From: Psammoneis japonica
Lineage: Eukaryota
NCBI GenBank assembly: GCA_008632985.1
Contig: QPGO01000232.1
Location: 1-64,000, forward strand
DNA: 64,000 nt
Direction of reading: 5' to 3'
The translations under genes and the position numbers were made by a program. Below the pieces are notes generated by a model, which saw only the letters and a list, made by a program, of their open reading frames with translations, was not told the origin of the DNA and did no database searches. Of this stretch, positions 16,339 through 64,000 are shown one piece after another; within the stretch, counting starts at the first letter, position 1, and each line of letters begins with the position of its first letter.

Positions 16339-16352
16339 TTGTTGTTGTTGTT
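16290..16352. repeat. (TGT)n microsatellite
   Basis: Long GTT/GCT run. Confidence 0.85.
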
Positions 16353-19167: not shown

Positions 19168-19290
19168 ACTCAGCTGAGCCCCATTCTCCAGCTCAGCCCA
19201 CCCACTCAGCTGAGCGCAATGATCCCTCATCGGCTCAGCTGAGCCTTTTGTTGAATTTTTTCTCAGCTGAGGGATTTCACTCACCTGAGA
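19168..19290. repeat. Cluster of CTCAGCTGAG palindromes
   Basis: 4 perfect copies plus variants; similar clusters at 20212-20318, 27507-27549 and 28533-28678. Confidence 0.8.
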
Positions 19291-23906: not shown

Positions 23907-23944
23907 GAAATCACTGTGAGTGAATGACAGATTGATGCGCACAC

Positions 23945-25972: not shown

Positions 25973-26002
25973 CTCAGCCGATGAAATGCTTTTCTTGTTC
26001 AA

Positions 26003-26526: not shown

Positions 26527-27149
26527 TTAAAATGATGTTTGCGAAAATTAACAAACCAAGGTTTGTGTGGCAATGCAATCACGCATTGGCATGTGGCAAC
26601 AAGGTGGAGGCAGAAATGGTGATGTGGACACAGTGAAAACAGCACACATGATTCTCAACAAGTTGTTGCAACATTGGCGCACCAAACTTGCAACCAGAGG
26701 TTGGCCTGTCACCATGTGACAGTGATGTGTTCCAACATTTTAATGAATTGTCATCATGTGGATCTACACATTTTTAACATTTCGTGCACTCTGATGTTTG
26801 CATTGATGAACAAGAAAAAAGAATGCTCTCAACCTTCTCTGACTCTGTCACAATGTCGCTCATCAAGGGAGGGAAGCCACCAAATGTTTTTCCATCATGG
26901 ATGGTGACCGTCCAGCCAGCCAGTGCCTTGCCACACTCCCTGTCCATCCTCTCTGTTCCCTGCACATGATCAAACAAGCTGTGCAAATTTCTCAAGTCCC
27001 AACCTGATCGAAAGATCTGTGGCATTCCAGCAGCAGATGGCAAGTGGGCCATTGCCTCCTCAGAGTCCTTCTTCCTGCAATGAGAATGAAGCCAGGCATT
27101 GAGCGTGCCAAGAATGGAGTGTGTGGCAGGGCCAGGTCTGTGCAGCCCC

Positions 27150-31580: not shown

Positions 31581-31960
31581 AAAGTCTGCAATCACCAACC
31601 ACTGAGTGGTCAATGAAAAGTCTGCAATCACCAACCACTGAGTGGTCAATGAAATGACCTCCCTGTGAAGGTCAGTGCACAGTGGGGACAGTGCTGTACC
31701 CCTTCGTTCTGCGAATGCCTTAAAAATGTATAAAAAATTAAAAAATGCAACGGACAAAACTCGTTATGTTCTATCTACAAAGATTTATACGGAATTGACA
31801 AATGATTTGCCGCCAACCCACCGTCAAAATTTCAAAATCGTGCGCATAATCAAATCCATCGCCAAACGACAACGTGCGTTGCGTACCACGTCGAAACTTG
31901 GAGAGGAGACAATAGAGGCTTCACAACAGTACACAACGGCTGTGCTGTGTGTTTGTCACC

Positions 31961-33136: not shown

Positions 33137-33550
33137 AGTAGGCCCTTGCAAACTCCATTTTGAAATGGTCCATCAAAATGCGCTAGAGTGTACCGATCCT
33201 AAAAAAAAGACTTACAGGTCTGCTGAAGAGTAAATATTCACGCATGCTTATTCTTGCACTCCAAGACGAAACGCCTTCCACCAGGATCTCGGTGTTGTTC
33301 TTGAAATTCGTCCACAATATGGTTTACGCATTCTTTTGTAGGTTTCAGCGCTATCCTATGATAATAGGCTTGCGTCAATTTAAAATTTGCATGCTAAATC
33401 ATGACGCATGGCGTGACTTCGGTTTCACATTTATTCCTCTCGCGCATCTTTTTGACTTGTACAGGATTAAATAGGCAATGTCATGCGCTATGAAGTTATG
33501 CTAGTCATAATCTGGATGGGGTTCTGCGACTTACTCTTACAGGAGATTTT

Positions 33551-34915
33551 TCATTGATCATCCGACTCTTCACTTGGTGGCGGTATGTTCCTTCCAGCCT
33601 TGATCCATCTCTCGGACGCACCAAAATTCAGTTCGGAAACAAGCGTATCGACTCGAATATTTTGATCTTCAAATCCATCCACACCAAAGGGATCCAAAAA
33701 TGATTTCGACAGTACCAGCAATCCACGGAAGAAAAACGTCATGAGCCCGACAAGCGGTGTCGATAGACTACCCAAATCCGAATAGAGCGCAAAGGGTGCT
33801 ACCCATATAAGAGAATCAATCAAGACTTGAACGAGTTGGACATAGGCAAGTGGCATGCGTCCGGCTCGTAAATCATCAATATCAAACATACTAGCACGCA
33901 ATCGTGTCAATTGATCCAAGACATTGGTTTCAAATCCCGAACCACCACGGAGGGTTCCTTGTTGAATGCCTTCGGTCACGTGCATGCCCACCCACGTCAA
34001 GAGGATATACGCGTATTGCGACGGCGGCAATCGGGATTGCATCAAGGCGGGTGCTTCCTTTTTTTGAAGTTGTCCCGATTCGACCAAGGCTTGCAATCCA
34101 AACGGACTCAGCAACAACGGTCCAATGTGCTGTTCATCAAAGGGCAATGGACAATTTTCCGTATCCTCCATGAATTCTTCACTATCAATCAATCCGTTGG
34201 ATGCCGTTTTGGTGGCGGCCCAAAAGAAAATGTGACTCATGCGTATCAACCGACAACAGCGTTTTACCAATTGTTCCGATTGTTTGTCGTAACCTCCGCC
34301 TTGTTTGTTGCGTTTGGCTGCCATGGTTATTAATATGCATAAATCATTGGCACGTCCTTGAATGGCGCGTGTCGTAAAGTAGACTTTTTGCCAGTATTCA
34401 AAACTCTGCGAAAGGAAAAAGGCCAAGACAAACGTGGCAATCGTCAATTGGTATTCCCACATTTTCTTCAATCCAATCAATCCCTTGATAAGTGGTTCAT
34501 CCGGACTGGGTATGGATAAAAACGCACGGTTCCTTCCTGCAACTCCGACATCAAACGCCACACAGGCGGCAATGGCCACCAACACGGATCGCCACGTGAG
34601 TTGCAACACGGTTCCCGTCCATTTGCGCCACAGCCACACGCCACGGGGTTGGTACTCGTCGATAATGGGACGATTGGGTTGTCGTGATTCGGCCCAATCC
34701 GTTAAACGGTCCAAACGACCACTCTGCCAACCGAGATTGGTCGGTGAACCCTTGCCTCGTAAGACGTGTCTGACAATTAATGTACAACGACGTGATGGTT
34801 TTGGTTTGAAAAGGTAGTTGGGATTGAGAATGTGAAACGCGTTGGAAGAGCTGTTGAGCAAGATGAAAAGTAAAACTCGTAAAGTCACTGTGTATCGGTT
34901 GAGACTAAATGGCAT
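33551..34915 (-). CDS. Bestrophin-like channel, probably plastid-targeted
   Basis: FVLAFFL..S..YW, MPLAYVQLVQVL, FFFRGLL.LSK.FLDPFG; signal peptide followed by SNAF motif; intact ORF. Confidence 0.85.
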   Translation of the reverse strand: MPFSLNRYTVTLRVLLFILLNSSSNAFHILNPNYLFKPKPSRRCTLIVRHVLRGKGSPTNLGWQSGRLDRLTDWAESRQPNRPIIDEYQPRGVWLWRKWTGTVLQLTWRSVLVAIAACVAFDVGVAGRNRAFLSIPSPDEPLIKGLIGLKKMWEYQLTIATFVLAFFLSQSFEYWQKVYFTTRAIQGRANDLCILITMAAKRNKQGGGYDKQSEQLVKRCCRLIRMSHIFFWAATKTASNGLIDSEEFMEDTENCPLPFDEQHIGPLLLSPFGLQALVESGQLQKKEAPALMQSRLPPSQYAYILLTWVGMHVTEGIQQGTLRGGSGFETNVLDQLTRLRASMFDIDDLRAGRMPLAYVQLVQVLIDSLIWVAPFALYSDLGSLSTPLVGLMTFFFRGLLVLSKSFLDPFGVDGFEDQNIRVDTLVSELNFGASERWIKAGRNIPPPSEESDDQ

Positions 34916-35319
34916 GATGTTGTTTTTGATCTGCTCTACCATTTCACAATTAATGTTGCAGAACAACAATAAGCACCGGACTTCTCATGCACAAGAAGTG
35001 ATCGTGATGGGTGATGGTGGCGTCAAAAAAAAACGCGGGAAAAAGCGTTGGACTAAATTTTTCGATCTTTTGCGGATGACCTACAGACACTTCAAGCATG
35101 TCCGGTCCGTCCGTTCGTCCCATCTCTACAAAGCGACCAAACTCGCAGTCTCATCTTGATAGGGCTCTCTCTCTCTACTAGAGGGCTAAAGCCCTATCCT
35201 GTAGCTAAAGGCACTATATCCAAAGACCACACGACGCTTAAAACGTATCCCAATATGAAACCCAAATAAAGGACACAAATAGCCGAATAGTCTAATCGAG
35301 GGACTTCCGCATGGCAAAA

Positions 35320-36630
35320 TCATATCAACTTATTTCTGTTCCCCACTCGTTCCGCCACTCGTAGCGTCGCGCTTCGTGCACGAGAATTCAATTGAATCTC
35401 CTCCTCGGTTGCTTTCTGCGGTTTCCCCACGTCTTCCAGGGTCGCGGAGTGCCAATGTAATTGCCGTACAAATCTCGTTCGTCCTTGGGACGCGCACCCG
35501 TCGTACCATGTCGCATGACACGCTTGGTGCTCGGTCTTCCATGGAATGATAACTCAACACTACCAAGCGTCCTCCGGGTCGTACAAGTGCCGGACACATT
35601 TCCTCGAGAGCTTTGTTGAGTACTTCGTCTTCGCGATTCACGACAATGCGCAAACTTTGAAAGACTCGTGCCAGCGTTGCCGTCCTTCCTCGTCGGCGGC
35701 TCTGTTTGGCAAAGGCGGGAACGACGGTGGCAACCGCGTCCACCAAGTCTTTGTGGTTTGGAGCGGTCGTGATGGACCATGGCTTGCGCAATGGCTCTGG
35801 CCCGCGGTCTCGCCGTACTGCTTCAAGATGCGTTTGAGTTCGTCCAGAGAAAACTCATTGCAAACGTCCGCGGCACTGATGCCTGCAGAGCCCGACATGC
35901 GCATATCCAAAGGACCGTCCTTCATGAATGCAAATCCTCGTTCGGGAGTATCAATTTGATAGGAGGATACTCCAAGATCCAAAAGAATTCCGTCCACTCC
36001 ATTATGATGGCTGCGGTCCAGTATTGCTCGTTGGTGTGTGGATGTCGAATCTCGGGTATCGTTGTAGCTAAATCACAGAAATTAGACTGGACCGACACAA
36101 AAGTGGCTTTGTTGTACCATCATGATTGATAAACTCCTGTAAGCGTTTCGACGTTGTCGAAATGGCATCCGGATCCACATCACACCCAAAACAATATCTC
36201 CAGGCCGCAATCTCTCCAGCAGCGCCAATGAATGACCTCCGCCACCCAGCGTCCCGTCCACAAAAATGAGATTTTTTTCGTCGGAAGACCGTTGACATTC
36301 AAGCAATGCATCGATGCACTCTTTGCACATGACGGGTGCATGATAGTCGGTGGCAAAATCTGTCACGTGGTTGGAAGCTACAACATCATCATGAGAAGAA
36401 CGCTGCTGTTGGTGCCTCTGTCGCTTTGCCCGGCACAGAGTCGAATGACACTGTCGTTGATGAGGACGAATATACTGTACTTCTACCCTCGATACAGAAA
36501 AGGCATTTGTCGTAATGCCACGCCACGAAAAGGAAGCCGCTGCAACCATGGATGGCAAGGCGATACAACAGGAATAAGGTGTCCGATATCTCATTAAGAA
36601 TTGTTGTTTCGCGAATGCTCGTCCTATCAT
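35320..36630 (-). CDS. rsmH: Organellar 16S rRNA m4C1402 methyltransferase RsmH/MraW
   Basis: [78 protein letters not shown]; several 1-bp frameshifts. Confidence 0.9.
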
Positions 36631-36998
36631 ATATAAAAAGTACTGTTCCGTATGTTGTTCAGTAGAGAACTGGTCTGCCTTGAGGGTGGGTTACGAAGAG
36701 ATCGTTCTTGCGGTCTATTGAGCAAGCGCCGATGGTGACAGATTATGCACAGGATGCATCAAAAATTTCAAAGATCGCAACGGAAAAAACAAAAAACGCT
36801 GAAAAGCGCGGGAAAGCGATGGATCTAAATTTTTCGATCTTTTTGGGATGACGTACGGACTATTCCGATAGTTAGCGAACAGGATAGCTCCACGTGGAAG
36901 TGATACTGATGATACACATTCTCGCGCCTGACGTCACTCTCATTTTTTCTTTCTCTGATTTCGGTGACACGACCACAATTTCCCAACAAAACACGACC

Positions 36999-37858
36999 AT
37001 GAAGCTATTCGCTGCTGCCTCTTCTCTAGTGTGCATGGCCACTACGGCCGGAGCCTTTGCTCCCCTTGTCGGACGCTCTGCTGCTACTTCTTCAGCCCTC
37101 AACATTGCTGTGGGCGACTCGATTCCATCCGTCGAGCTCATGCAGGGATTTCCCGATGTCGAGAAGATCAATGTTGCCGATTACGCCAAGGGCAAGAAAT
37201 GATTGTCGTGGTCTTCCCGGCGCATTCACCCCCACGTGATCCGCAACCCAGGTCCCCGGGTACCTCAAGGCCGAAGGTACGAGAACCGAATATAGGAGTT
37301 ATCGTCGTTTCATTTATGTTTTGCTGTGGTATTGTGTGCGTGCATGAGAACTCGAAACATCATTCTCACCTCGCTCTTTTGCTCCACATCTAATCAATAC
37401 GATGTACAACAGACGACTTGAAAGCCGCGGGAATCGACGAAGTACTCGTGTACTGCATCAATGACCCAGCCGTTATGCAGGCTTGGGCCATGGATCAAAA
37501 GACTGGTATCTCCATGATCACCATGATGGGTGATCCCGCCGGAGAATTCACCAAGGCTCTTGATGTGAGTATATTCTGTTTGTAGCATGATGGTATGATT
37601 GTTATTTTGCTTACATCTCACTCTATACCACTTGTATTACCGCTCAAATTATCGCAGCTTGAAATGACCGACGAGGGTCCTCCTTCGGTTGGAATCATTG
37701 GACGCAGCAAGCGTTTTGCCTTGTACGTGGATGATGGTGAGGTCAAGTACGTTGCCGTCAGTGAGGCCGAGGGTGATCCCGCCGGTGACGCTGATCCGTC
37801 TGCCTCGTGCGCTCCCGCCATGCTGGAAGCTATCCAAGAACAAACCGCCGCTGTTTAA
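36999..37858 (+). CDS. Plastid-targeted type II (Prx5-like) peroxiredoxin with selenocysteine
   Basis: GAFAP bipartite motif; GLPGAFTPT-TGA-S (TGA 37237-37239) at the peroxidatic Cys; NDPAVMQAW, GRSKRFAL; introns 37277-37412 and 37565-37657; two 1-bp deletions near 37200-37211. Confidence 0.85.
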
Positions 37859-37891
37859 AAGTACACTCTCTAACGAGTGTGTGGATTGACG

Positions 37892-37976
37892 TGTTTGAGA
37901 AACGTAATGACGTTGCCGAGTGTTATGCTCTACCCAAGAATGGGCGTAACCTTGGTGACTGACACTGTTTCGAGCA
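37892..37976 (+). promoter_or_regulatory. SECIS-like element 1
   Basis: ATGAC-GTTGCCGAG ... CTTGGTGAC-TGAC (GA quartet plus helix II); lower helix TGTTTG..GAAAC / GTTTCGAGCA. Confidence 0.7.
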
Positions 37977-38035
37977 TTTCAAACGCACACAAGTTGGTGT
38001 GATACTCTTGGATATATTTTTGAAGAAGTCGCTTA

Positions 38036-38112
38036 TCGACTTGAATGCTTGAATGACGTTCCTTCATTGGATACTTGTATGCCGTGAAGAGACTGACCAT
38101 AGCACTTGTCGA
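38036..38112 (+). promoter_or_regulatory. SECIS-like element 2
   Basis: ATGAC-GTTCCTTCAT ... GTGAAGAGAC-TGAC; lower pairing TCGAC..TGCT / AGCA..GTCGA. Confidence 0.6.
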
Positions 38113-38374
38113 CTGATGTTTCTTTACTCCAGCATTTAATTTTAAATTGGATTTATAAAAATGCCAATACTACCGAAAGCAAATCTATTTTATTTTGGGG
38201 CGTGAGCGAGCACAAGGCAAATGTTTTTTTGTTGCCGCATGACGTATCGATCGAGAGTGTGTCTCTTCTGAAACGAAAAAAGCAATTATTTGCTATGTTA
38301 GAGAGCTCTAGTAATAGCATTCACACTAGTGTGCCGCCATGAACCGCAAATGCTACGCCCACACAGAGATACAA

Positions 38375-38596
38375 CTACTCTTGTTGCGCTACACGCAGCA
38401 TGCGACGATCACCGCCGTCAAGCTCCTCATCAAGATCACCAACAACGCCAAGCATGCAAATACGTCCCATGTTGATGTGTCGCCCAAACATCTTGCACAT
38501 GAACTTGCGCATAAACAACGGAATCGTAGCATCCGTAGGCTGAATCATCCCAGCAAGGACCAAAAGCGGGAAAAGAAAGGAAGCAATTTTCATCAT
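38375..38596 (-). CDS. Putative small secreted protein (~73 aa)
   Basis: Signal peptide MMKIASFLFPLLVLAGMIQPTDA; acidic stretch followed by RRMLR; (GA)n tract upstream at 38625-38671. Confidence 0.4.
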   Translation of the reverse strand: MMKIASFLFPLLVLAGMIQPTDATIPLFMRKFMCKMFGRHINMGRICMLGVVGDLDEELDGGDRRMLRVAQQE

Positions 38597-39272
38597 GCGC
38601 AAATCTGCAGTGTGCACAGATACTGAGAGAGGGAGAGAGAGAGAGGGGAGAGAGAGAGAGAGAGAGAGAGAAGCCAATGAGCACATGCGAGGAGGAGTTC
38701 ACAGCAAAGAGTATCTCGCCAAGGACAAGAACGACGCAAAATGCACAGCGACAACTTACCGTTTTGCTCTTTCAATAAAGGCAGTTGGTAGAATTCGTCT
38801 TTTTCCCTTTCGAGTGGGAACGACAGTGTGAGAAGTGCACTGTGAGTTGAATTATTTCAATTTTTAAACCCCATCTTCGGTCCTATATACCATAGTCCGT
38901 TGTGTTAACCGCCATCCGTTGAAATAACTGTTAAAAGAGTTAGTTGTATCATATGTATTCGGAAGGGATGTCCGCCTGTGTCTCCCACCTGATGACCTGC
39001 GTGCGATCATAGAGGGAGGATTAGGAATGGCGCTACGAGAGCCAATCAGAATTCAGCATTTGGGATTTCTACTTAGGGGAGACCCTCGGAAAGTCGAGGA
39101 CTTTCCGACTAATTAATTAACACTTTTTTGGAAAATCTGACGCAATCACTTGGGGACGAGGAGGTTGAGACAACTCTCCAAAAGCAGACACAAGAATCAG
39201 AATGATGCGGAGACCGACTGTCATCTTCCTTTCGTGCCACGGAAAATCACAACAACACAGACTTCTCACGCG

Positions 39273-47237: not shown

Positions 47238-48710
47238 CTAGTTGTTCAAAGCGAATACGTAGGCGGAACCAGAACTTTCTCCATTGACATCACGTAAACG
47301 CGCTCCAACTCCAACGACACGTCCGTCTGCCGATAGGGACACGGACCATCCAAAATAATCCCATTGATTCTTACCATGCAACGCATTTCCCACTGGATTC
47401 CATTCTGAAGAGTTGGTGTCGTACTGAAACATTGTCACTTGACCGGCTGCAGTTAACCGGTTGAATGCGAACAGGGCCCACAAATCGAAGAGCCAGGTGG
47501 GAAGGAGCACATCAAAGGTGAGAGGTCGACAGTTTGGAGGCAGTTGCTGCAAAATGTTCCTTGAAACAGATGACAAGAAGGACACAGACACTCAAGCCCA
47601 TCTTTGCAGGTTTTGCAAATGTTGTTGTATCCACTGCAAGTGTTCCCAAATTGGGGCCAACGACTTGCATCGGAGCTGCACTCAAACGCTTGCACATGAC
47701 CTGCACTGACTTTGCTGCTGTCATGCCGTTGCAACCCAGGGCAACAGACTTGCCAAATTCATCACCGCCACCACCTCCTGCCAGTTCTTGACCAATGTGG
47801 TTGCATTCTGGAGTGAATTCACTGAATCGACTCACTGGCACATGGCCAGGATTGGAAGACGAAGCCTGCTCTGCTCCCACTGCAACGAATGTTCCATCAT
47901 GAGATGAGGAAATGGAAGTTCCAAAATGATTGTCTGAAGCTTTGCCATGCAAGACCTGCCTGACAGCTTGCCAACTCCCTGGAATGACCTGCAGCGTTGG
48001 GGCAAATGTCGGCAAGTCAGCAGCACTGGGTCAGACCTTGTGTTTGTGGATGCAAGTGCCGCAGGAATGGCAATGGCAGCAACAATTGTCAGCAACACAC
48101 ATCCAAGTAAAACAGGGCAATTGTGACAAATCTTCCTTTCCTCTTCTTTGTGGTTGCTGGTTGTGTTGGAAACTTGTTGTGGGTCTTCTTCCCCTCGTCG
48201 ACATGGGCAAGGTTGGTTTTGTGCAAGCAGAGCGGCGCTTTGGTGCACTGCAATTTCTTGTCCAAATCCAGCTGTGTGCTTGTCCCCATTTTCTGTGGAT
48301 TCAGCCAATTGAGCTTCCACAAGAGGGGAGCTTGCATCATGGTTGAGTGGTTGTGTTGTCACCAGGGATCATCCAAGTGTGTTGCAGCAGTCTCCCAGTT
48401 GGACGAAACTGTCATGCTGGCATCATCGACACCACCCACTCATCCACAACGCACCATGCCTTGTTCATTTGCTGCACAAGCACCGGCTTGCATGGAGGAT
48501 GGCAGAGGATCTCCTTCAACTTGTTGTTGTTCAACCTTCTCTTCTTGTTGCTTTTCCTTGTTGTCTTGATGAGAGGCATTGATGGAATCAACAAGTGCGT
48601 CATTGTTCTTTGATTGTGCTTGTTCTTGTTGCATCTGTTCCAAGTCTCCTTCTTCTTCATTGCCAGCGATTTCCTTTGTGCGGCATTGCTGCCAGGGGGC
48701 AACTCATCTC
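47238..48710 (-). pseudogene. Rearranged FG-GAP paralog: 3' tip unmutated, remainder hypermutated
   Basis: 47238-47450 keeps Tyr (MFQYD, WDYFG, GSAYVF); 47620-48710 has LHGKASDNHFG, PGHV, AGACA and almost no TA or CG; internal deletion plus foreign insert. Confidence 0.8.
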
Positions 48711-50659
48711 ATGTTTCTTTTCAATGTGTCTGTGACTGATGATTCCAGATTGACAAGAACATCGCCATCATCATCTTCCACGCTTCCCCACACAGTGGAG
48801 GTAGACAGCACATTCAGACATGGTGCAATTGTGAATGCTGCACCCAAGAAATCTTTGGAAAGGCAAGAGGGCAGCTGGTGGTGATGTCAGCAACTGTCTG
48901 TCCATGTGCGATGATCCCTTGTTCTTCACCATGAGAATGAATGACCACCCAAATCTGTGAGGAGAATTGGACAAAGTGCAACAATGGTGCATTGTGTGAG
49001 GGAGAAAAACACTCAACTGTTGCATGACAGGTGCTTTTGCAATGACTCACCAAAATCAGAAATGGTTTGACCAGAACTGCAACGAAGTCCATCACATGCC
49101 CTTCAAAGCCATGTGACAAATGTGCCAAGCCAGGGAAAAAAGACATCCCAAGAACAAGTTCCAACACAATTAAAGGGAGGATTTGTGCACAAATGTGCTG
49201 GACACACATGCTTCTTCCAAGCCCACAAAGCACACCTTCATGATTGTGGCAGTTGGGTGCAGTCAAATTTAGTCAGCGTGTCCATTGCACAACAAAAGTC
49301 TGCACGTTCACCTCCAACTGCACTTGCACACTTGCTGCGCTGTTTTGTTGCTTGCAGCGCTGTTGCATCGCACATCATTTTCCACACAGTTGATTGTCAA
49401 ATCCATTTTCCAGGAAAGAATCTTCCAATTTTCTAGACATTCTCAACCAGTTCCCAGAACAATCAACCAGCTTCTTCAGCTTCTTCACTTGCCTGTGTTT
49501 TGTGCAGCACAAAACTGACATTTCAGCAGCATCAGAGTGCAACATGATGAGCCACTGTCTTGGATGACATTCCATGCCACCTGCAAATGATGCCAAATCA
49601 CACCACACAGAAGCTGTCAGAATGGATGTGGCTTCACTGCACATGTGACAGCAAAATGACAACAACAACAGCCGCAATGTGCTGTGATTCAGCTGGCCAG
49701 TTTTTGTCTCATTCTGCAAGTCACGTGGCACTCACACATGTGAAACCAAAACATGCACATGATGTGACCACATGGAGACAAAAACATGACTGAATTGTTC
49801 AATGTGAGGACTCTGATGACATGCAGCAAACAACGCAAATGACGGGTGCAGCTCATGGCCAAAACAAAAATTGTGAGTTTTCTGCACTCAAAAAATGCAC
49901 CGGAATCATGCGCAGTTTCCCCTGGTGCAAAGTTGCCACACTTGCATGGCATGACCAAACATTGTGCAAATGAGGTTTAGGCCTTTGGACACTGCGGGGC
50001 AATTTTTGGAAATGAGATGGGGCCCAGCACTCCACACATGTGCGCATGAACGATTGCATGCTTGGGCCAGGGGTGCACATGCTGCATCCTGCACAGAGTC
50101 TGCATGTTCTTGAATTGATCTCTGCCAAGCAAAAAATCAACTCCAAGAGTTTGGCCAAAGCCAAGCTGGTGAACAACAGCTGGCTTCTTTGAGTGCTCAT
50201 GACCATGAAGACATGCAAGCATGAAAATTGTTCTTCATCAAAACTTGAGCATTGACAACAAGAGGACAACTGCAACATCACGTGCAATGGAGGCATGTGC
50301 CCAAACCCATTTCATGGTGACAGGGAGCCATTGCAACACTCAATCTAGTCAATGATGTTTGCCAAATGCTCCACAGTGCACAAAACAATGTGAAAAATTG
50401 CAGAGATCAACAGAAAACATGTGATGCAAAAAATTGTTTGTGCTGTCATGTTCCCAACCCACTGCACGCAGCTGGCTCCAGGCACCCCATCAAACAATGG
50501 CCACTTTTGTGATTGGCGCAACAAACTCTGTCAGTCTTCAATTTTTCCAAAATCAATGTGTGGTTGTGCACAAAATGGTTGGGAAAGCAGAAAACATTCA
50601 AATCAGAAGCACCAAAGCTCACAACCTTACAAAGTGAAGAGCAGATGAACACATGACAG

Positions 50660-51300
50660 CATCGTCAATCACAAGCTGAGAAGAATTGAACAATCGCCAT
50701 TGTTGCAGTGGCCACATTTTGCATTGCACGACAAGGACATCACTTTCTGACCTGAAAAATGGTCAAAAAGAAGTTTGGTGACAGACGAGCCACACTTTGG
50801 GATGACACAAATGTGCCATGTGTGGACTCATTGGATGCCAATGTGGGTCATGCATTGTTTTCCCACTGCTGCAATGTTTGCATTGTGAAGGGTGCTGTCT
50901 TTCTTCAAACTTGTGGGTGGAAGGGGAACTGGGAGCTTTGGGGTGATGTCTGACTCTTGCTGTCAAGAGAATGCAGGGATGCTTGATCATCAAGAAGATT
51001 TTGTAAAAAAAAATGCACTGGTGCTCCAGATGCAGTGGTTTTGAATGTGCCAGACAAAGCATGCCAGACAACAATGGCGGCTTGGCATGAAGGCTGACAA
51101 ATGACAACGCAGCCTGATTTTGCAAGGAGTGGCTGGCGGCTCACTTCTCAACAAGTCAAGTGAGTTGGCACTGTTGCACCAACTTGATCCAGCAATGAAC
51201 ACACAGTTCATGTTTCCAAGCAGAGCAACCACACTGCACGTAGCCTCAGAAAGCATCAAAGTCCCACTCGATCAACAGGTGCATGACTTTTGCGTGGGGG
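50660..51300 (+). mobile_element. Decayed PIF/Harbinger-type DDE transposase
   Basis: WPHFA..D..W, WDDTNVP, KGAVFLQTCGW..WELW..VSDS, DKAC (DKGY-like), QPDFA, NEH(R)TV. Confidence 0.65.
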
Positions 51301-52645
51301 TTTCAAGCAAACTTCATGTGCAAGCCCATCCTTTAAAAATGACACTGGTGCCTAAAAGCATGGCAACCAAATGGTTCTTTACATGCTTTGCAAGATGATT
51401 GCAGCATGCTTTGGCTGGCCAGTGTCTTGCTGCAGGGCTCAACAAACTTCGTGTGCAAGCCTGTTCAACAAAAACAACACACCACAAAAACAATGCAAAA
51501 AGGCTCTCTGTGCTGCACTGTGGATGATTGCAACCATGCTTTAGCCAGCTTCATGCCAGCCAAGACATCTTTGGCACAGCGGCGCTGAGCACAATGCCTG
51601 CTTTGATTGTTTGCTCAGAGAGTGTTGCTGGTTCAGGGGGAAACCACAGCACTTGCTTTGCTTTCTTTGCCATGCTTCAAATGAGCTGTCTGGCTGTGCC
51701 TGCAGAGCACACTTTTTGCTTTCTGCAGGAATGGCACAAATCTGCCCCAAGTGCATGCATTTGCACTTGCCACCAAAACTGGTGAAGTTGCACCACCCAT
51801 GTGTGGAGCCATGTGGCACACTGCAACAATGCTGGCTCCCTGCAGTTAACTGCAAAACAGACAGAAGTGGGCAAGGCATGCAATGGTGCACTCAAGCCCC
51901 TTTCGTGATGACTCCAGTCAATTGATTGTGACACTGTTCAATGCAGTGAGTGGCATTGATTGTTGTTGACAGTGCACAAAATGGCTGAAACAAACACAGT
52001 GGATCAATGGGGCCATGATTGTTCTTCCCTTTCACTGATCTGATGGGCAAAGTGCAGTGGGTTGTTTGCCACACAAAAATTGTTCTTGTGTCACAGTGCC
52101 ACACATGACCAGAACCAACATTGCAGATTTAATGACAAAATTCATTTTTTCCCTTTTTTCTGTCACAAGGGGCCACTTTGAGTTCATGTGTCAGCATGTC
52201 AGCAGGTGTGGTCATTGCTCACATGGTGGATTTGCACATGGCCACTTTTTTCTGAGCATTTCATGAGCTTGCCTCTTGCAATGAAATTAAAACCTTTGTG
52301 TGTGCAAGGGTGTGCAAAAAGTGCACATTTTGCATCTTCATTGGAATGATGAATGCTCGCCAAAAGCTGAGAAACATGAGCTCTGGCAGGCAATGATGAA
52401 AAAATTGTTTGGCACTCAAAATGCATGGACAACCATGCTCTTCTGTTGTTTTCACCTGGAGCTGGAGCCATCCAGGCCACAAGGTGCCCGGACCAAAGCC
52501 CAGGGCAAAAGATAAAATGCATGCAGCCAAAGCAAGTGTGACACAAATTTGGCATGACAGACTCCATGTGTGAAGATGCGGCAAACCCCGTTGCGGGGGT
52601 GCCCCGCAGTGTCCAAAGGCCTGCTCGTCAAACAATGACAACAAA

Positions 52646-54650
52646 ATGACACAAGTCATTGTCCCTTTCTTGTCGTTTCAGATGAAGAAAATTGTGGCGC
52701 GTGAAATCCTCTCCCGATTTCCCAACTTCTCTCAACCTTTCAAGATCTGTCCGGATGCGAGTGACTGTCAACTTGGTGCAGTGATTGCTCAAGATTTTGA
52801 TGATGGCGGATGGCCAATTGCACCCTGCAGTCGAAAATTGTCCCTGGCGCAACAAAACTGCATGACAATGGAAAAAGAGCTGCTGTCGCTTGTCGAAACG
52901 ACCAAAAATTTCAAAAGCATCCTTTTTGGCCATCGATGCTGCCTTTTTGCCGATCACAAGAACCTCACATTTGACAGATTCAAGTCAGAGCGCGTCAAAC
53001 GCTGGCGTTTGCTTCTCGAGGAATGCGATTGCTCTTTCGAGTGTTTGCCAGGCCATGAGAATGTTGTGGCTGATTTTTTGAGTTGCCATCCCATCGTCCA
53101 AGTTGACACGGGTTCCAGTCCCAGGCGGGACTTTTTGTGACATTTGGCCCGTAGAATTTTACGTGCGAGCTCGGCATTGCGAGAATTTAATTGGTGGATG
53201 TTTTCATCTTCAACATCAAATGAACGACCAAGTTTGTGGCACAATTGTGACCATTGCCGCTTGACGTTTTCGGCAATCCGCCTGCCCTGCGCCATTCTTA
53301 AGACATTTGCAAATGGCGCAGAAGAAAAAATGTCAAAACTTGTTGGACGGATCGCTCAATGAGTGCACCACAAAATGACACAAAAATTTCAGAAAAGTCA
53401 CGTACCTTTCTACATGCGCGACACACGGTGCGATCCAAAAAACTGTCGATGTCACAGTTCAGCAGCACGAGGTCCCACCTGGAGCTGGAGCGCGTCTTGA
53501 TCAAAGCAACTGCGAGGAAATGACTTCATTGGAAATTGATCCTTCGACATTCCCCGTCACTTTCGACATTGTCGCCAACCATCAGAAAAAAGATTCTGCT
53601 CTCCAGCAGTGACTCGACAAGTCCGAATCCTGCTCGGCCAAATCATTCAACAAAAAACAGATGATCCTTTGCAAGGACAAGATCGTCCTTCCTCCAACAC
53701 TTTTTCCTGCAGTCCTGCATTGGTGTCATGAAACTCTCTGCCATCCTGGTGCCAACCGCACCTGTCAAACCTTGGCTTCACATTTTTACATCTGCGACAT
53801 GCAGACGAAAGTCCGCACTTTTGTCCGTCAGTGCCGTGTGTGTTCCAAATCCAAGCACACTGCAGCAAACTGCGGTGAATTGCCTCTCCCGGATGCTGTC
53901 TACAAGCCTTGGCAAGCAACTCAAGTCAATCTTTTTGGTCCCTGGACATGCACCGACAAGAATGGCATCAATCGCAAAATCAGAGCCGTTTTGATTGTTG
54001 ACATTGCAACCCGTTGGATTGAACTCGCGAGCTGCAAGTCCAAAACGTCTGAAGACATTTCACTTGTCGTTGATCGCAAGTGGTTTTGTCGCAATGGCTC
54101 CGAACTCACTTCCAAGTTTGCAGACCTTCTCTGCAGTTGTGGCGTTAAACCAAAGCCTGCAACGATCAAGAATCCTCAAGCCAATGCGTTCGTTGAACGC
54201 ACTCATCAAGTTGTCGCCGATTCTCTCCGTGCGATGGATCTCCCTTCTCGCGATTGTGATGAAGACACGATTCATGGAATTTTGCAATCCATTGCATGGG
54301 CCTTGCGCAGTGCCTGCCATGCTGCCCTCATGTCGTCTCCCGGACAAATTGTCTTCGGTTGAGACATGGTCATTTCTGCTGCTCATCTTGCGAACTGGAA
54401 AATGATCAATGCCCGTCGCAAGCGCGATGTCCTGCGCAACAATCTCCGCAAAAAAGCAAAACGTCTTGCCTGCAACTACAACATCGGTGATCAAGTCTTT
54501 GTCATGACCAAAGACATCCAACGCAAACTCAACACCAAAGATGGTCCCTTCCGCATCGCACGTGTCCACACCAATGGAACCGTCACCATCCCGCGCTCGC
54601 CTCGCATCACCGAATGCATCAACATCTGCCGTCTTCACCCTGTCTTCTAA
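52646..54650 (+). mobile_element. Ty3/Gypsy pol relic (RNase H, integrase)
   Basis: DASDCQLGAVI, SRKL..AQQNC..MEKELL, DHKNL; HHCC finger; NPQANAFVER; GPF module; RNase H precedes integrase; PPT GGGGAAGCAAG at 54661-54671. Confidence 0.92.
53107..53496. mobile_element. Family A MITE nested in the Gypsy pol
   Basis: TIRs; TSD TTGA; same subfamily as 343-732. Confidence 0.9.
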
Positions 54651-54671
54651 TGTCTCAATTGGGGAAGCAAG

Positions 54672-55377
54672 TGCCAAGTGTCACGGTCATCTACATTCAT
54701 TCGTGTGTTCATTCGTGGATGTCAGCCTGATGCCAAAAGTGTCAAAAGGATGTCAACGATGACACTTTCTAGAAACCTCTTCTCTTTTCTCGACACATCT
54801 CGATGCCTCTCGAAAGATTGTTTCTTTGCATTTCTGCATGGTTTCTCAGCATTAATTCTGTGAGATTTTGGAGCAGCCAAATCTCTTTCATTTCTTTTCA
54901 CAATGTTGGCAACAGTCAACATTGCAACGCTGTTTTACACTGTTGCTTGGCACCACTTGGCATGCCGACGTTGGGCTGCACACACTGTGCCACACACAAG
55001 TCATGTCCAGAGACGTCGTTTTTGCATGGCACTCTCTCTCTCTTGACGACACACGGTCGAATCAGTGAGCATGTGGCCAAGACCAACAAAAAAAACGTTC
55101 CATCATTCACACCGCTGCGGTCTGACGACTCTCCCACTTGCTCTACACACAGAGACTCCAAACCACAAATCCCCTCTAGAATTGCACTCTCCACTTGACC
55201 AACATTCGTTTGTCGTTTCCACCCAAAATCATCATTCGAATTTGCTCCAACGCCAACATAGACCGGTTCCCTGCCCTCTTTGTGTAAGTAAACGCAAATG
55301 CCAACACATCAATCTCCACTCAATGTGCATCTTCACCAATCAGAGACACTCTGTTTGAGCGACAGTTGGTTCCAACA
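54672..55377 (+). repeat. Probable 3' LTR of the Gypsy element
   Basis: Starts TG immediately after the PPT; right end (..CCAACA) inferred from where TA content recovers. Confidence 0.5.
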
Positions 55378-57687: not shown

Positions 57688-59517
57688 TGCGGTTTATGGC
57701 GTGGTTGCTTTGCTGTATTGTTGGAGCTCTTTTGTAAAGCACTGCTGCAGTAACCTTTGGGCGATTAACTCTTTGGAGTTAATTGAAGGTTGCTCTTGGA
57801 GCGAGAAGAACGTGAAAAGTGTTGCGTGAACGTGAAAAGTGTTGCGTGGCTTTTCGAGTGGTCCAAAAAATGAGGAGACGAATGCACACGTATCTTTCTA
57901 CGTAGAATTCTACAGAACGTGGCGGGAAAGGATATTCCTTGAATAATAATATATAAGAATACGAATGTTCTATAGAACGCAAAATTTTCGAAAGATCCAA
58001 GATCCTTCGTACACAGCTGTAGAAATCTACACAGAAGATCTTTTGGCTGACTCACCGTTGAATTTTTATCCAGAGCTACAGCAATGAATGTTAAGAATGA
58101 AACACAGACAGACACAAGCGGTCAGTCGGGCACAGCAGAGCGCACACCATGATGTCACACTCTCACGCCACACAGCGAGAACGCAACCTCCAAGAGGCAG
58201 AGCAAAAATGGACTCACTTCCATTGTTCTGACATGATGTTACAAGTTTGAGTGAAATGAGGCCCATCCGAACCCTCGAGTCAGTGCTGACACGTCAACTG
58301 CGCAACAACAACGCCTTTTGCTCATCACTCACCCCCGTTTCTCGGACACAAACACACACCAGAATTGTGCACCGGCAGATTCCACCTGCGGCACAGTACG
58401 ACAGAGAAAACGAGAACCCTACTTTCCTGCCATTTTTTCTTTACGAGAACTGGTCCATGGAATCCCATTGGTCAAGTCTTGCACGGCAAAGGTGCAAGTG
58501 ATTCGTTTGGCCAAGCCGTCTCCTTGTCTCGCAGTGGCAGCGTCATGGCTGTTGGAGCGAATCAAGAATGGTCGTCTTCCAAGCTTGGCCATGTTGTTGT
58601 GCAGCAATGCAATTCAAGCACCCAACAATGGGAAAAAATTGGGCAAGAATTGATTGGACAAGCCGCCAGTGACAAATTTGGACAATCGGTTTCGTCAAAC
58701 GGCGACGGCACCATTCTACAGCTGTTGGAGCCGATGAGAATGACAGTGGAGGAATGAGTGCCGGTCACGTTAGTGTGTTTGAATGCAACTCTGTAAAGAA
58801 TTGTTGGGTTCAACTTGGCAGCGACATTCTTGGACAAGACGCTGGTGATCGATTTGGTTGTTCCGTGTCGCTCTCGGACGCGGGTGACATTCTTGCTGTG
58901 GGAGCTCATTTGGATGACACGGAAAATGGCTTGAATTCTCGATCGGTTCGGTTGCATCAATGCGACCGTGGCTCCTCATCCTGGAGTCAACTTGGACAAA
59001 CGCTCATTGGACAAGCCGTCAATGATTGTTTTGGGTTTTCCGTTTCCTTGAATGCACCGGGAACCATTGTGGGCGTTGGAGCACATTGGAATGATTTGGG
59101 TGGAAGGGATGCAGGTGAAATTTTGGTGTGTGAATGCAACACCACATCCTCAAGGTGGGATCTGTTGGGCAGTCCTGTCAATGGCCAAGTCGTTCATGGT
59201 TGGTTTGGACATTCTGTTTCTCTTGATGACAGCGGTTTGATCGTGGCCGCGGGTGCTCCTCGAGATGACGAGAGGGTTTTGGCACATTCGTGCGACCGCT
59301 CGATGTTGCAATGGAGCCAATGTGGCAAAACCTTTTTGACACAACAGCCTGGTGATGGTTTTGGTTGGTCAGTGTCGTTGAGTGGCAATGGAGACGTCTT
59401 GGCAGTCGGAAGTCGTTGGCATGACATCAGTGGGTTGGTCCATGTGGGTCAAGTTCGAATCTTTCAGCATGACCGCAATGCAGATGAATGGAAGCATGTT
59501 GGAAATCCTTTGAATGG

Positions 59518-62500
59518 TGTCAGAAATTGAAGGCAAATGGCAAGAATTCAAACAACAACTCCTTGCTGCTGTCTAAACAGCAGATGAGTCTCCGCTCAGA
59601 GACCGTTGCAGGAGCCGAAAGACGTGCAAGTCGGCACAATCGGGCCACTGTTGTCATTCTTGTGAGCCTTGTGGCTCGAAAGCAAACTACATCGCACACG
59701 AACGCGCGGAACTAAAGCACACAAAACTGTGCACAGCAAACTAAACAGCGCACGATGTTTTGCGCGCACCCAAATCCTGTTCAAATCCTGTCACTCCCCA
59801 GTTTGCTTGAGGAGTCACAGAAACAGATTCGACTTCGGATTGACCAAAGAACTTTGGAGTCAAAGCACCAAAACATGAGGAGACAAGAAAGGATCAAGAT
59901 CCAAGAGCAACGTTGCATTCTCCAAGTGGGTCATCTTGAGATGAGCTGCATCTCCCCAGTTGCAGATGCCGTTGTGCTTTTCAAAGCTCAAGGCACACTT
60001 GGGATCTTGTGGGATTCCACATCCACACTTGCAATGGAAGGAGCAAAGCTTGGTCTGGTTGACAATGTTGAACGGCAGGGCAACATTGCAGGACAATGCA
60101 AACAAGTTGACATTGCCTTCACTTCCTGAGCGAAGGTCATAAAGACTGATGTCCGTCTGTTGGTTCTTGGGACAGTTGCCACACTGGGCTGCTGCTAGAA
60201 AAACAGAGCAGTGCTCGTGCAGGGTGGCATGGCGTTTGCACGACTCGGGGAACAGAGCAAGCATGAGTTCAAAGGCACAAGCGGTGGTCTTGTGTTCCAC
60301 CAATCCGATTGCAAGCTCAGCTGCATCTCCTGAGAGACTGATCCAATTGGAGAAACGAGTCTCAAGGTGCAAGCCTTCGGGGATCGGATTGGAGCAAGAC
60401 ATCTTGTGGTGCAAGGCTGCAGATGTCTGATTGGGGCAACCAGTCCCATGCTGCAAGACTTCTGGGATCCAAAAGGACTTGCCAGTCTTGTGACACGAGT
60501 CTTCGGGGATCCAATCAGGAGGCCAAGTCTTGAGGTGCGAGACTTGGGGGATCCAATCAGGAGGCCGAGTCTCGTGGCACAAGACTTGAGGGATCCAATC
60601 CGGAGGCCGAGTCTTGAGGTGTGAGATGTGGAGGATCCAATTGGGAGGCCCGGTCTTGAGGCACGAGACGTGGAGAGTCCAGTTGGGAGGCCTGGTCTCA
60701 AGGCACGAGACTTGGGGCATCCGATCAGGAGGCCCAGTCTCGATGTACGACACTTGGGGCATCCAATCAGGAGGCCCAGTCTCAAGGCACGAGACTTGAG
60801 GCATCCAATCAGGAGGCCCAGTCTCGAGGTGCGAGACTTGGGACATCCAATCAGGAGACCTGGTCTCGAGGTACGAGACTTGGGGCATCCAATCAGGAGG
60901 CCCAGTCTCGAGGTACGAGACTTGGGGGATCCAACCAGGAGGCCCAGTCTCAAGGCACGAGACTTGAGGCATCCAATCAGGAGGCCTGGTCTCGAGGTAC
61001 GAGACTTGAGGCATCCAATCAGGAGGCCTGGTCTCGAGGTGCGAGACTTGGAGCATCCAGTCAGGAGGCCTGGTCTCAAGGCACGAGACTTGAGGCATCC
61101 AATCAGGAGGCCCAGTCTCGAGGTACGAGACTTGAGGCATCCAATCAGGAGGCCTGGTCTCAAGGTACGAGACTTGGAGCATCCGGTCAGGAGGCCTGGT
61201 CTCAAGGCACGAGACTTGAGGCATCCAATCAGGAGGCCCAGTCTCGAGGCACGAGACTTGAGGCATCCAATCAGGAGGCCTGGTCTCGAGGTACGAGACT
61301 TGGAGCATCCGGTCAGGAGGCCTGGTCTCATGGTGCAATGCTTGGAGGATCCGAAGACAACAAAGCTGCTTGGATGTCCTGAACTCCCCATCTGATGAAC
61401 CGGTTGAACTGTTGTGAACAGATTCAATGACGGGAAAAGGAGGCTCCCCATCAGGAGATGCAAGAAGCAAGTTGTCATCTCCATCACTTCCCAAACGAAG
61501 ACTGTGAAGGGTGACAGCGGTTGACACGTGGAGGTTGGCAGCAAGTGGTTTGCGGGGTGCAAAGGCTGTAGCTTTGGAAGCCATGGGTGGAGTGTCCCAA
61601 CTGGTCTCGAAGTGCGGGTCTGTGCAAGGGCTGCAATCCTGCACTGGGCCGAGGTTGCTTGCAGGCGGGTTGGTCAAGACATGCGGGGCGCAACTGACAC
61701 CACTTCTAGGGGACACCTGAGTGGTGGCACAGTGCAAGGCTGGCGTCAAAATGGCACTGGGTTCACCTGGTTTGGATGGCAAGGGACTCGGCACAGGTGC
61801 GGAGGGTGCTGCGCCAGTGGCTAGAGAGGTCAAGCAGTCCGGACCAAGGCGGCAGTTGCGAAATTCCTTGGGTGTGAGCAACTGGGGTTCATTGGTCACA
61901 TCATCACCATTGCAAACTTTGACAAAGTAGAAGCTGATCAAAGCTGCTAGGAGGTTTCTGTGGGTCCATGGCAAAGGCACTACATTGGCGCCGTCTCTGC
62001 AAGTGAGGGCGTCAATTTGGGTGGGTGAGAACGTGAACAATTCCTCGCATGATTCAATCCCGTTGATGGACAGGGCAGAACGAAGAGGGCTGTCATTGTC
62101 TTGATTGAGCACAGTGCCTAGAATGCATTTGAAGCTTTCGGTTTGTTGCTGTCGCGTGAGAACCATGACGGAGGACGGTGCAGCAGAAACAAAAGACAAG
62201 ATCCAATCTAGAGCGCGATCTTGACTCGGAGTTTTGACTTGGAACTTGGCTTGAAAAAGACTTGACTTGAGCTAGACTTGACTTGAAATCTTGGACTGTC
62301 TTAAAATCAGAAGTTGCCGGGTTGTGCCATCCCGTTCGTTGTCAAGTGCCAAACTTCCTGTCCGGTCCGTAGAGTTGTGCCGGCACGTCCGAACCCGTGC
62401 AGCTGGTGGCGCTTTGGGTTGCTTACGAGCGGAGCAGCGGGTTGTAAACCCCTGCAGGTGAGCTGACCAGAGGTGGACAAGACCCCCGAACCGTTCTTAT

Positions 62501-63398
62501 TTTATGTCGGTTGGATTTCCCGATCAGGCTGGCCAGTTGACGCAGGCGTCAGGCACTGTGGACGAACGAACAAACGCGGGAAAAACACCCTCGCCCCAAC
62601 GCAGGCTGCAATCACGGCTGCTTGCTCTCACAGTCGTCCTCGTGGACCTGGTGGAACTGCAGAGCACCAGTGGTCCGGGGTGGATCAGGTGCAATGGACT
62701 CGGTGTGCTTGTAGAGTGGTGGCAAAACCGCAATCCGAAGAGTGGGTGCAAGTTCTTGGCCGTGAAGACATGCACACATGCATGTCTTCAGCGACGAAGG
62801 TCCTTGAACATGTGGGGCTCTTGACTGTTAACCGATGAATGGGCACATCAAGGGATGAGGATCAAGGGTGGACTTGGACATGACCGTTGAATGTGTGTCT
62901 TCAGCGATCAAAGGCAGTGTGATCAATCCAGATGTCCAGCGACAAGGAGACTTGACGGTGACGTTAAATTCCTGCCGATGCCTGGTGTTGAACGCGCGTA
63001 GACTTGCCGATGCATGTAGAACACACACGGAGGTCCACGCAGAATTGAGGTGGCGTCGTCGGTAAATCAACGACAACGATGGCGGTTGCTCAATGGGTTG
63101 ACAATGAGCAAGACTGTCAATCTGTCAGAAATTGAAGGCAAATGGCAAGAATTCAAACAATGACTCCTTGCTGCTGTCTAAATGGCAGATGAGTCTCCGC
63201 TCAGAGACCGTTGCAGGAGCCGAAAGACGTGTGAGTCGGCATGATCGGGCTGCTGTTGTTGTTCTTGTGAGCCTTGTGGCTCGAAAGCAAACTGCATCGC
63301 GCGCGAACGTGCGGAACTAAAGCACACAAAACTGTGCGCGGCAAACTGGACAGTGCGCGATGTTTCGCGCGCACCTGAATCCTGTTCAAATCCTGTCA
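59518..63398 (-). mobile_element. Non-autonomous LTR retrotransposon with Copia (diatom CoDi-like) gag N-terminus
   Basis: 276-bp TG..CA LTRs (59518-59793, 63123-63398); 5-bp TSD AATGG; minus-strand PPT at 59794; ORF MVLTRQ..ILGTVL.Q..DSPLR.AL..; no RT or integrase. Confidence 0.88.
60490..61329 (-). repeat. 42-bp in-frame tandem repeat, ~20 units (ETRPPDWMPQVSYL)
   Basis: Unit CTCGAGGTACGAGACTTGAGGCATCCAATCAGGAGGCCTGGT; degenerate units continue to ~60360. Confidence 0.95.
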
Positions 63399-64000
63399 AA
63401 TGGCGAGAGGCTGAAGACAATGGTTTTGGATGTTCTGTGTCCTTGTCGTCCGATGGAAGCATCGTTGGAGTTGGTGCACGGGGGGCTGACGTCAATGGCG
63501 ACAAGTCTGGATCCGTGCATGCATTCACGGCAAACAACAACCAGAGGTGCATTTTGCATTTCATCCATTTGCATTGCTTGCGTCATTGCAATGTTGCATT
63601 TCAAACGACTGATGGTGTCGCAAGTGCTGCAGCAACAAAATGAAACCGTTGATTTGCAATGAGCAGGTCAGTCAGCTCTCCAGTCCTTTTGGTGGCATGC
63701 TGCAAGACATTTGCTGCATCAGTCCATCACATGAGGAGAGACGCAGCTCGGTGTCTAGAGTTGCATTGGCACCTGCCGCTGGCTAGAAATGCTGCTTGCA
63801 GCTGACAAGATTCCTGAGCTTTTGGCATTGCAGGTCGAAGTGACAATTTGTTTGTAGACGTGGCATTCGTTCTAAGAAAACCAATGCTTTTGTCCAAACT
63901 GTTGTCTTGCAGATGCTTTTCAGCCTTGTTCATTTCTGTCTTGGCATGAAACAACCTGCTCAATCAAAAATCCGCGCCCATCCACCCCAACAAAATGGCA

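Follow-up and report, generated by a model that had tools for sequence, protein, structure and literature searches.

Long terminal repeat divergence in a retroelement of the diatom Psammoneis japonica and the dinucleotide-specific decay of the surrounding DNA

The first 64,000 nucleotides of contig QPGO01000232.1 of the diatom Psammoneis japonica (GenBank assembly GCA_008632985.1; this whole stretch is hereafter the window) contain a 3.9-kb insertion, which is a long terminal repeat (LTR) element sitting inside an FG-GAP_2 repeat gene. Its two LTRs differ by transitions only, and the explanation that we favor, and consider probable, is that after the insertion the LTRs changed almost solely through a dinucleotide-specific decay that is common to the silent DNA of the window. 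A non-autonomous LTR retroelement would have entered the FG-GAP gene and its LTRs would have decayed in place, with CpG passing to TpG or CpA (putatively by deamination of 5-methylcytosine, by analogy with methylated diatom transposons), TpA changing by T>C to CpA or by A>G to TpG, and CA/TG being the stable end state of the decay. Doublets with CA in one LTR and TG in the other would be places where the same hot CG or TA was hit in both LTRs with opposite products. Decay at CG and TA would explain the transition-only pattern, the doublets, the TA/TG sites, the absence of indels and the uselessness of LTR divergence as a clock, while a strand polarity of the LTR changes stands outside it and is weighed separately.

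LTR differences and the decay of CG and TA

A repeat search and MAFFT alignment gave a gap-free pair of direct repeats of 276 nt, at 59518–59793 (left LTR) and 63123–63398 (right LTR), with TG..CA termini (start TGTCAG, end CTGTCA). A 5-bp target-site duplication, AATGG, abuts both LTRs (59513–59517 as read from the sequence, and 63399–63403 from sequence and paralogue comparison). Since the FG-GAP paralogue in inverted orientation at 7148–8372 (- strand) spans the insertion point uninterrupted and with a single AATGG (within 7258–7372), the insertion is genuine, and this intact paralogue served as the empty-site reference as well as the outgroup for the flanks. A position-by-position script found 25 differences among the 276 positions, all of them transitions and with no indels, exactly as an earlier sequence-only reading of the window had counted. 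The finer details of that reading were also correct: seven adjacent doublets pair a CA in the left LTR with a TG in the right (LTR positions 39/40, 61/62, 110/111, 120/121, 129/130, 138/139, and 254/255, six of the seven being grouped in positions 39–139), 24 of the 25 differing sites match a left C or A with a right T or G (only position 244, with T at 59761 and C at 63366, does not), and a TA/TG site at position 172 is accompanied by a TAA/TGG site at positions 226–227.

The differences are confined almost entirely to three kinds of dinucleotide, as 24 of the 25 fall in CG, TA or CA/TG doublets while the remaining positions differ at 1 of 210. The raw divergence between the LTRs is 9.1% (Kimura two-parameter distance 0.100), compared with 0.5% outside CG, TA and doublet dinucleotides, and therefore the element is young and LTR dating is inflated about 20-fold, which bears out the earlier warning that this divergence is not clock-like. 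The left LTR has lost 13 of 29 inferred CpG, 12 of them as CA, and the right LTR has lost 9 of 29, all as TG, with two TA sites additionally reading TG. The sequence-only reading had regarded the CA/CG and CG/TG sites as ambiguous between CpG decay and A>G; this ambiguity is real, and the genome does both.

Family states were taken from contigs of a public sequencing run of the same organism, with 40 of 267 variant rows listed. Six single sites could be polarized by the family reads, and because of these we conclude that both LTRs have changed since insertion, the changes being C>T/G>A at CpG, joined by A>G in the right LTR. In the left LTR, the derived states are A at 59735 and 59752 (family G at 99–100%), A at 59733 (family G at 68%) and T at 59761 (family C at 96%), whereas the right LTR has derived T at 63310 (family C at 99%) and, at 63349, a derived G where all 33 family contigs have A. 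At the doublet at 59646, T makes up 63% of the family depth and no change at 59647 appears among the 40 of 267 rows listed, which suggests that TA or CA forms, rather than CG, are common at 59646/59647 in the family. Judged by the rates across the window, CG is no likelier than TA to have been the ancestor of a doublet.

The dinucleotide landscape of the window is bimodal when profiled in 1-kb steps. Genic blocks, at roughly 4–11, 32–39, 45–48, and 55–58 kb, have an observed/expected (o/e) ratio of 0.44–0.72 for TpA, about 1 for CpG and about 1.2 for TpG+CpA, while in the rest of the window these values are 0.00–0.12, mostly 0.2–0.9, and 1.5–2.0, respectively. Large TpA-poor blocks such as 12001–31000 and 48001–53000 contrast with 4001–11000 and 32001–39000, the TA count is zero in 27001–29000 and in 16001–17000, and there are blocks (18001–19000 and 53001–55000) where TpA has been lost yet CpG kept. 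Pooling within each compartment gives a TpA o/e of 0.09 for the decayed and 0.54 for the intact DNA.

Transitions of the kind seen in the LTRs, including CA/TG doublets, were found in every other duplicated sequence of the window. Comparison of intact paralogues with their decayed copies showed that TA was kept in 0/63, 0/10, 0/22, 0/23, and 6/25 cases (6/143 together), and CG in 10/87, 5/29, 31/70, 16/79, and 19/28 (81/293 together). The fate of the 63 TA of the intact region 32567–34193 illustrates the direction of the change: in the decayed copy at 14143–15841 they have become 31 CA, 17 TG and 4 CG, and none is kept. CA and TG themselves are stable, being kept in roughly three-quarters of cases at least and turning into TA in at most 1%. 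Overall the copy at 14143–15841 shows 80 T>C, 66 A>G, 64 C>T, and 51 G>A changes. Where an intact FG-GAP copy has TA and two decayed copies have CA or TG, the product is the same five times and different four times, which fits independent decay from TA and not a gain of TA in the intact copy. Among the in-window repeats, the C/T difference rate is 0.32 at CpG, compared with 0.074 at CpA, 0.048 at CpC, and 0.099 at CpT. The decayed letters are not merely an assembly consensus, because flank contigs at single-copy depth match 59400–59550 and 63371–63498 with 0 differences and thereby reproduce the decayed flank sites exactly; against the paralogue these two segments hold 2 TA>CA/TG and 7 CG>CA/TG changes.

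Two context rules were considered. A preference for CpA, as in the repeat-induced point mutation (RIP) of Neurospora, is hinted at by CA>TA/TG>TA in 17 of the 40 listed family rows, but the in-window repeats give it no support. A simple 5'-purine rule for TpA decay looked suggestive from survival, since hardly any ATAC, GTAT or ATAT is left whereas about half of the TTAA, CTAG and CTAA survives; the polarized products agree with it only weakly (purine side changed 33 vs. 18, A side 17 vs. 27). A full-text literature search returned no description of TpA decay. The most useful outcome of the analysis is this two-compartment decay of CG plus TA, which accounts for the spectrum of LTR differences. 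In practical terms, LTR-divergence dating, and any other divergence-based ageing of repeats, would be off by an order of magnitude in P. japonica unless CG and TA are masked.

Strand polarity and its possible origins

To quantify the polarity, each visible change was scored once, either as agreeing (to CA in the left LTR, to TG in the right) or as the reverse. Independent outcomes agreed in 16 of 17 cases (7 doublets, 6 left singles and 4 right singles; two-sided binomial p = 2.7e-4), and in 14 of 15 when CpG-type sites were taken alone (p = 9.8e-4). Of the 12 duplicate pairs compared in the window, the LTR pair gives the lowest p value (the runner-up has p = 0.052), and correction within the window gives ~0.003; this correction covers the 12 pairs, and the LTR pair itself was picked by the reader from a very large scan. 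TpG and CpA products are balanced in other repeats (e.g., T 42, B 36), as opposed to 1:12 and 9:0 in the LTR pair. Against the paralogue, the left flank has changed to CA 17 times and to TG 25 times (CA 4 and TG 8 within 300 bp), the right flank to TG 3 times and to CA 6 times, and private CpG changes in the interior near the right LTR are likewise mixed (62826 C>T; 62942 and 63075 G>A). With the other pairs, the flanks and the nearby interior all mixed, the polarity is a feature of the LTRs only and departs from the general decay. The combination of G>A/T>C upstream and C>T/A>G downstream reads the same on either strand, and the polarity is therefore independent of the orientation of the element. 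A further candidate LTR pair, 16997/17506 from a second LTR-like family, was set aside as it is mixed (11 vs. 13) and not clearly a single element.

On balance we think it somewhat more likely than not that the polarity is a real, strand-coherent effect confined to the LTRs. The sequence-only reading had gone further and proposed processive mutation of opposite strands in each LTR. The polarity that it noticed is indeed statistically unusual (16/17), but the processive part rests on one pair only, there are no strand runs elsewhere in the window and the flanks are unpolarized.

Several observations weigh against decay as the full account of the LTR pair. Decay does not explain why the left LTR went to CA in 12 of 13 changes and the right LTR to TG in 11 of 11, so that the LTR polarity is an outlier to the very process invoked. 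The eleven other duplicate pairs in the window are mixed (p from 0.052 to 1), and adjacent outcomes in other pairs are alike about half of the time (71/134 in the 14143–15841 copy, 35/60, and 40/74). The hits in the two LTRs overlap beyond independence: the LTRs have 13 and 9 hits at the 29 inferred CpG and share 7 of them (P = 0.023), and within LTR positions 1–160 all 7 hits coincide between the LTRs; this overlap needs very hot sites or another origin. Moreover, the family evidence covers one of the seven doublets (in the 40 of 267 variant rows listed), the intact and decayed compartments behind the pooled ratios were drawn from the TpA profile itself, and 55% of sampled 31-mers were present in the best run, copy-specific letters of the repeat lacking independent confirmation.

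The strongest alternative to a real polarity is chance, i.e., that decay is unpolarized and this pair is an extreme draw. It has to be taken as a serious option because the pair came out of a very large scan, having been chosen after the data were seen and among an uncounted number of LTR pairs, and the mixed outcomes of the other pairs, of adjacent sites and of the flanks are what it would predict. A p value that stays near 0.003 after correction for 12 pairs pulls in the other direction, as does the finding that CG-derived and TA-derived changes in the right LTR share one direction, and we accordingly hold chance to be quite possible, though short of probable.

Strand-coherent editing or deamination of fresh duplicates, resembling RIP, would account for the pattern if each LTR had a single strand converted in at most a few passes, with C>T and A>G falling on the + strand in the right LTR and on the - strand in the left. 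The polarity is indeed limited to the sole young and once-identical repeat pair, the same sites were struck in both copies, strand-exclusive clusters are reported for Neurospora (PMC7296669), and diatoms encode DNMT4 enzymes that are related to the RIP enzyme RID, according to PMC9998398. Set against this, TpA falls rather than rises, T>C/A>G occur beside C>T, C/T differences are not enriched at CpA (0.074 against 0.048–0.099 at CpC and CpT, and 0.32 at CpG), and older repeats are without strand patches. Homology is also not a general trigger, because elsewhere in the window one copy decays while its paralogue stays intact, and although the whole 3.9-kb element is repeated in the genome, the interior changes at 62826, 62942, and 63075 are mixed. 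We therefore rate such an episode as unlikely, if worth keeping in view.

The LTRs could also derive from two family haplotypes, one LTR (or a part of it) having been overwritten by gene conversion from one of thousands of family copies or the element having been born chimeric. The huge size of the family (LTR depth ~3e5) makes donors plentiful; LTR positions 239–240 are split within the family into ~55% CA and 41% TG with CG almost absent, no high-support alternative letter was found at six of the seven doublets among the 40 of 267 rows listed, and the clustering of six doublets in positions 39–139 would suit a converted tract. However, the intact target-site duplication excludes an inter-element crossover, though not conversion, and the absence of transversions and indels among the 25 differences does not resemble the family, in which 236 of 266 variant places are transitions, 30 (~11%) are transversions and indels are common. 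The polarity problem would also just be moved back to two donor lineages. We consider this origin decidedly unlikely.

A more speculative proposal merges the decay and the polarity: a two-way editing of silent chromatin, of a kind that the literature search did not turn up, might drive the pyrimidine–purine palindromes CG and TA to CA/TG, acting strand-coherently (one strand per copy) on newly duplicated DNA, as a defense that would be RIP-like in role but different in chemistry and perhaps carried out by a RID-related DNMT4 or by a thymine- or adenine-modifying enzyme. We give this little weight. Should the strand coherence of this LTR pair recur genome-wide, a RIP-like process would for the first time have left a sequence footprint outside fungi, and diatom DNMT4 would gain a candidate function.

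An excess of C>T and A>G on the non-template or the lagging-template strand is a known asymmetry in other organisms, and a replication origin inside the element, or outward transcription, could expose the - strand of the left LTR and the + strand of the right LTR and let such changes accrue there. The geometry fits, in that C>T and A>G lie on the outward-pointing strand of each LTR, but the flanks differ (left CA 17/TG 25, right TG 3/CA 6), the interior near the right LTR is mixed, and transcription of the element itself would be expected to give the R-U5 part of the right LTR the opposite polarity; a regional asymmetry is thus improbable.

An artefact of assembly or polishing within a high-copy repeat, through miscalls at modified bases or reads from other copies, keeps some probability because only 55% of the sampled words occur in the best run, and no contig carries the window letter at 60025, 60448, 62733, or 63349, a check which is limited in that contigs drop rare variants. 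Nonetheless the flank contigs match exactly, decayed sites included, the private letters of the left LTR are found in reads at low depth (398/124186 at 59735 and 1037/77712 at 59752), and the family reads independently show the same kinds of variant, so that an artefact appears quite improbable.

Least probable of all is that the LTRs were born different through editing or misincorporation in the reverse-transcription steps that build one LTR only: this would restrict polarity to the LTRs, and in the strand-transfer model the direction seen would result from G.T-type misincorporation when the last strand of each LTR is made, but such misincorporation should not keep to CG and TA, late single-strand deamination predicts the opposite (C>T in the 5' LTR and G>A in the 3' LTR in the sense direction, whereas G>A is seen upstream and C>T downstream in either orientation), plus-strand strong-stop errors, fully fixed and opposite in direction, should outnumber last-strand misincorporations, a 9% error load would be required, and the changes sit in dinucleotides that decay in non-retrotransposed DNA of the window.

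The element and other loci of the window

The TG..CA ends, 5-bp duplication and empty paralogous site establish the insertion of an LTR retroelement, which is short and non-autonomous and belongs to a very abundant family. The abundance of the family follows from the summed contig depth over the LTRs, which is ~3e5 compared with 36–43 on single-copy flank contigs, both LTRs drawing comparable depth. Many family members part from the element just inside the LTRs, where reads have loose ends, as expected of a non-autonomous derivative. Its - strand open reading frame (ORF) and a G-rich purine run suggest that it is read on the - strand, in which case the left LTR with its CA-type states is probably the 3' LTR and the right LTR with its TG-type states probably the 5' LTR. 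The run, AAACTGGGGAG in - strand reading (59794–59804), abuts the left LTR and resembles a polypurine tract, judging from the letters alone. A TGG-type tRNA primer-binding site was not seen beside either LTR, and the window has no tRNA gene for primer comparison. In the interior of only 3.3 kb, a Pfam scan of 10 ORFs found no reverse transcriptase, RNase H, integrase, protease or gag family.

The long ORF of the element occupies 59860–62166 (- strand); it encodes 779 amino acids when counted from a TTG at 62199, while its relatives start at the ATG at 62166. It is laid out as an N-terminal conserved domain, a region of 14-amino acid repeats and a Cys-rich tail, the repeats being encoded by a 42-bp tandem array of 19.9 copies at 60495–61329, within whose units CG, CA, TG and TA alternate at identical columns. 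The ORF as a whole has no Pfam match. Residues 12–149 (61729–62166, - strand) found 36 distant relatives at E ≤ 1e-3, with a best value of 2e-13, among 1.84 billion representatives; these 36 are otherwise unannotated proteins. The fold predicted for this domain (pLDDT, the predicted local distance difference test score, 86.8) gave no Foldseek match at E ≤ 0.001, and exhaustive alignment with VIA-align placed SAM domains in the top rows at only middling Z scores of 5.5–6.7. One possible role of the domain is self-association in a retroelement protein of diatoms. Stop-codon loss was dismissed as the source of the long ORF, because TGA rises while TAA and TAG fall and the stop density is 0.027 vs. 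0.035 per position.

Searches for relatives of the element gave little. The window holds no other copy of it, a degenerate 32-nt LTR pattern had no match in metagenome contigs, and a 21-nt LTR-end pattern hit two loci which match over 21–26 nt only and are put down to chance. The open frame of the LTR had no match as a peptide query, the ORF N-terminus had none at near length, and a protein atlas gave scores of ≤0.84 only.

The interrupted host gene consists of an upstream part at 58365–59517 (+ strand; Pfam PF14312, E 2.9e-22) and a downstream part at 63404–63643 (+ strand; PF14312, E 1.8e-6) that matches the paralogue at 7148–7317. The upstream part is decayed (TpA o/e 0.08); it is 79% identical to the paralogue at 7312–8372 and keeps 0/22 of the TA of that copy. 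A local FG-GAP_2 gene family comprises 1847–3000, 7185–9731, 47241–47961, and 58365–59517 with 63404–63643. The copy at 7185–9731 is intact, with an ORF of 848 amino acids, while that at 1847–3000 and the LTR-split copy of 58365–63643 are TpA-depleted. Among the genic blocks, a TLC nucleotide-transporter ORF at 5409–6353 is 65–72% identical to proteins of Ditylum, Pseudo-nitzschia, Fistulifera, Mayamaea and Thalassiosira; its best named matches are in Ditylum (72%), Pseudo-nitzschia (71%) and Fistulifera (71%), and other ochrophytes reach ≤48%, which marks the host as a diatom.

Elsewhere in the window, 13099–15841 is a decayed pseudogene copy, 73–76% identical, of the bestrophin-like region 31954–34193, in which all 73 TA of the intact copy and most of its CG have turned into CA/TG; the intact copy is untouched, with an ORF at 33551–34969 that matches Pfam Bestrophin. 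A second repeat family of ~400 bp is present at 13741–14140, 16997–17396, and 17506–17902, with fragments at 343–733, 910–1027, and 53108–53496. The member at 13741–14140 is inserted in the pseudogene and flanked by a 5–6-bp duplication, CTCGAC/CTCAAC (one transition apart), where the region 32531–32611 is uninterrupted, and it is probably a solo LTR. At 29637–31580 there are three tandem copies of a 620–670 bp unit, each ending with an 8-bp microsatellite like GACTGCCC; they differ chiefly in their CG/CA/TG state, copies 1 and 2 leaning towards CA (8:20 and 5:18), and non-CpG sites group copies 2 and 3. An imperfect palindrome at 25998–26531 has arms of ~270 bp which are 68% complementary and show inter-arm CA/TG doublets at 6:1.

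Of the 22 ORFs of at least 250 amino acids in the window, 15 lie in decayed DNA (e.g., 16274–25972), and the five of these 15 that were scanned had no Pfam family. Counted on both strands, 41 kb of decayed DNA hold 177 TAA and 143 TAG, whereas 20 kb of intact DNA hold 345 and 272; TGA is a frequent triplet in the decayed DNA. ORF-based gene calling in the P. japonica genome calls for care.

Comparison with known systems

APOBEC-type G>A hypermutation of retroviruses and retroelements occurs during reverse transcription and resembles the present case in that its transitions are strand-specific and can leave the LTRs of an element unequal and their dating unreliable. It differs in that it predicts the opposite direction, that the context here is CpG/TpA, and that the same changes occur in pseudogenes and flanks which were never reverse-transcribed.

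For the TpA half of the decay, two systems offer partial likenesses. In E. coli, very-short-patch repair leads to the loss of CTAG via T:G-to-C:G correction, so that there, too, a TA-containing word is depleted by T>C. The 5-hydroxymethyluracil of dinoflagellates is reported to prefer TA and TC and to be enriched on repeats (PMC11572971). It is thus alike in acting on the T of TpA and in marking silent repeats. Neither this base nor the very-short-patch side effect is known in diatoms, and 5-hydroxymethyluracil is not known to cause TpA loss.

RIP shares with the LTR pair a transition-only hypermutation of repeats in which both copies are struck, as well as a strand-exclusive pattern (here 12/13 and 11/11). 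In Neurospora, 91.9% of RIP clusters are reported to consist solely of C>T or solely of G>A (PMC7296669); for basidiomycetes, a target that contains CpG is described (PMC3318451), with a TpCpG variant in Pucciniomycotina, and the RID-related DNMT4 enzymes are described as widely encoded in diatoms and of unknown function (PMC9998398). However, RIP acts by C>T only and raises TpA, whereas here T>C/A>G occur as well and TpA is nearly gone. In addition, four paralogue pairs of the window have one copy intact and the other without any TA, and there are no strand clusters in the 11 other pairs. Because TpA falls and intact duplicates are spared, the process is not RIP as defined.

A further parallel is the methyl-CpG decay of silenced transposons. 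CpG methylation of diatom transposable elements is reported (PMC2806351, PMC9998398), where it is maintained by DNMT5. The dominance of CpG to TpG/CpA (0.32 vs. 0.05–0.10) and a CpG o/e of 0.2–0.6 in decayed blocks against about 1 in genes are as expected of it, and the CpG half of the decay is probably ordinary methylation-linked decay. Passive deamination predicts no strand polarity, whereas the LTR pair is polarized, and TpA is lost here as well, indeed more fully (6/143 kept vs. 81/293 for CG), with some blocks free of TpA yet retaining CpG. That silent domains have lost nearly all of their TpA, along with CpG, suggests that T:A pairs in TpA are the target of a mutational or repair process.

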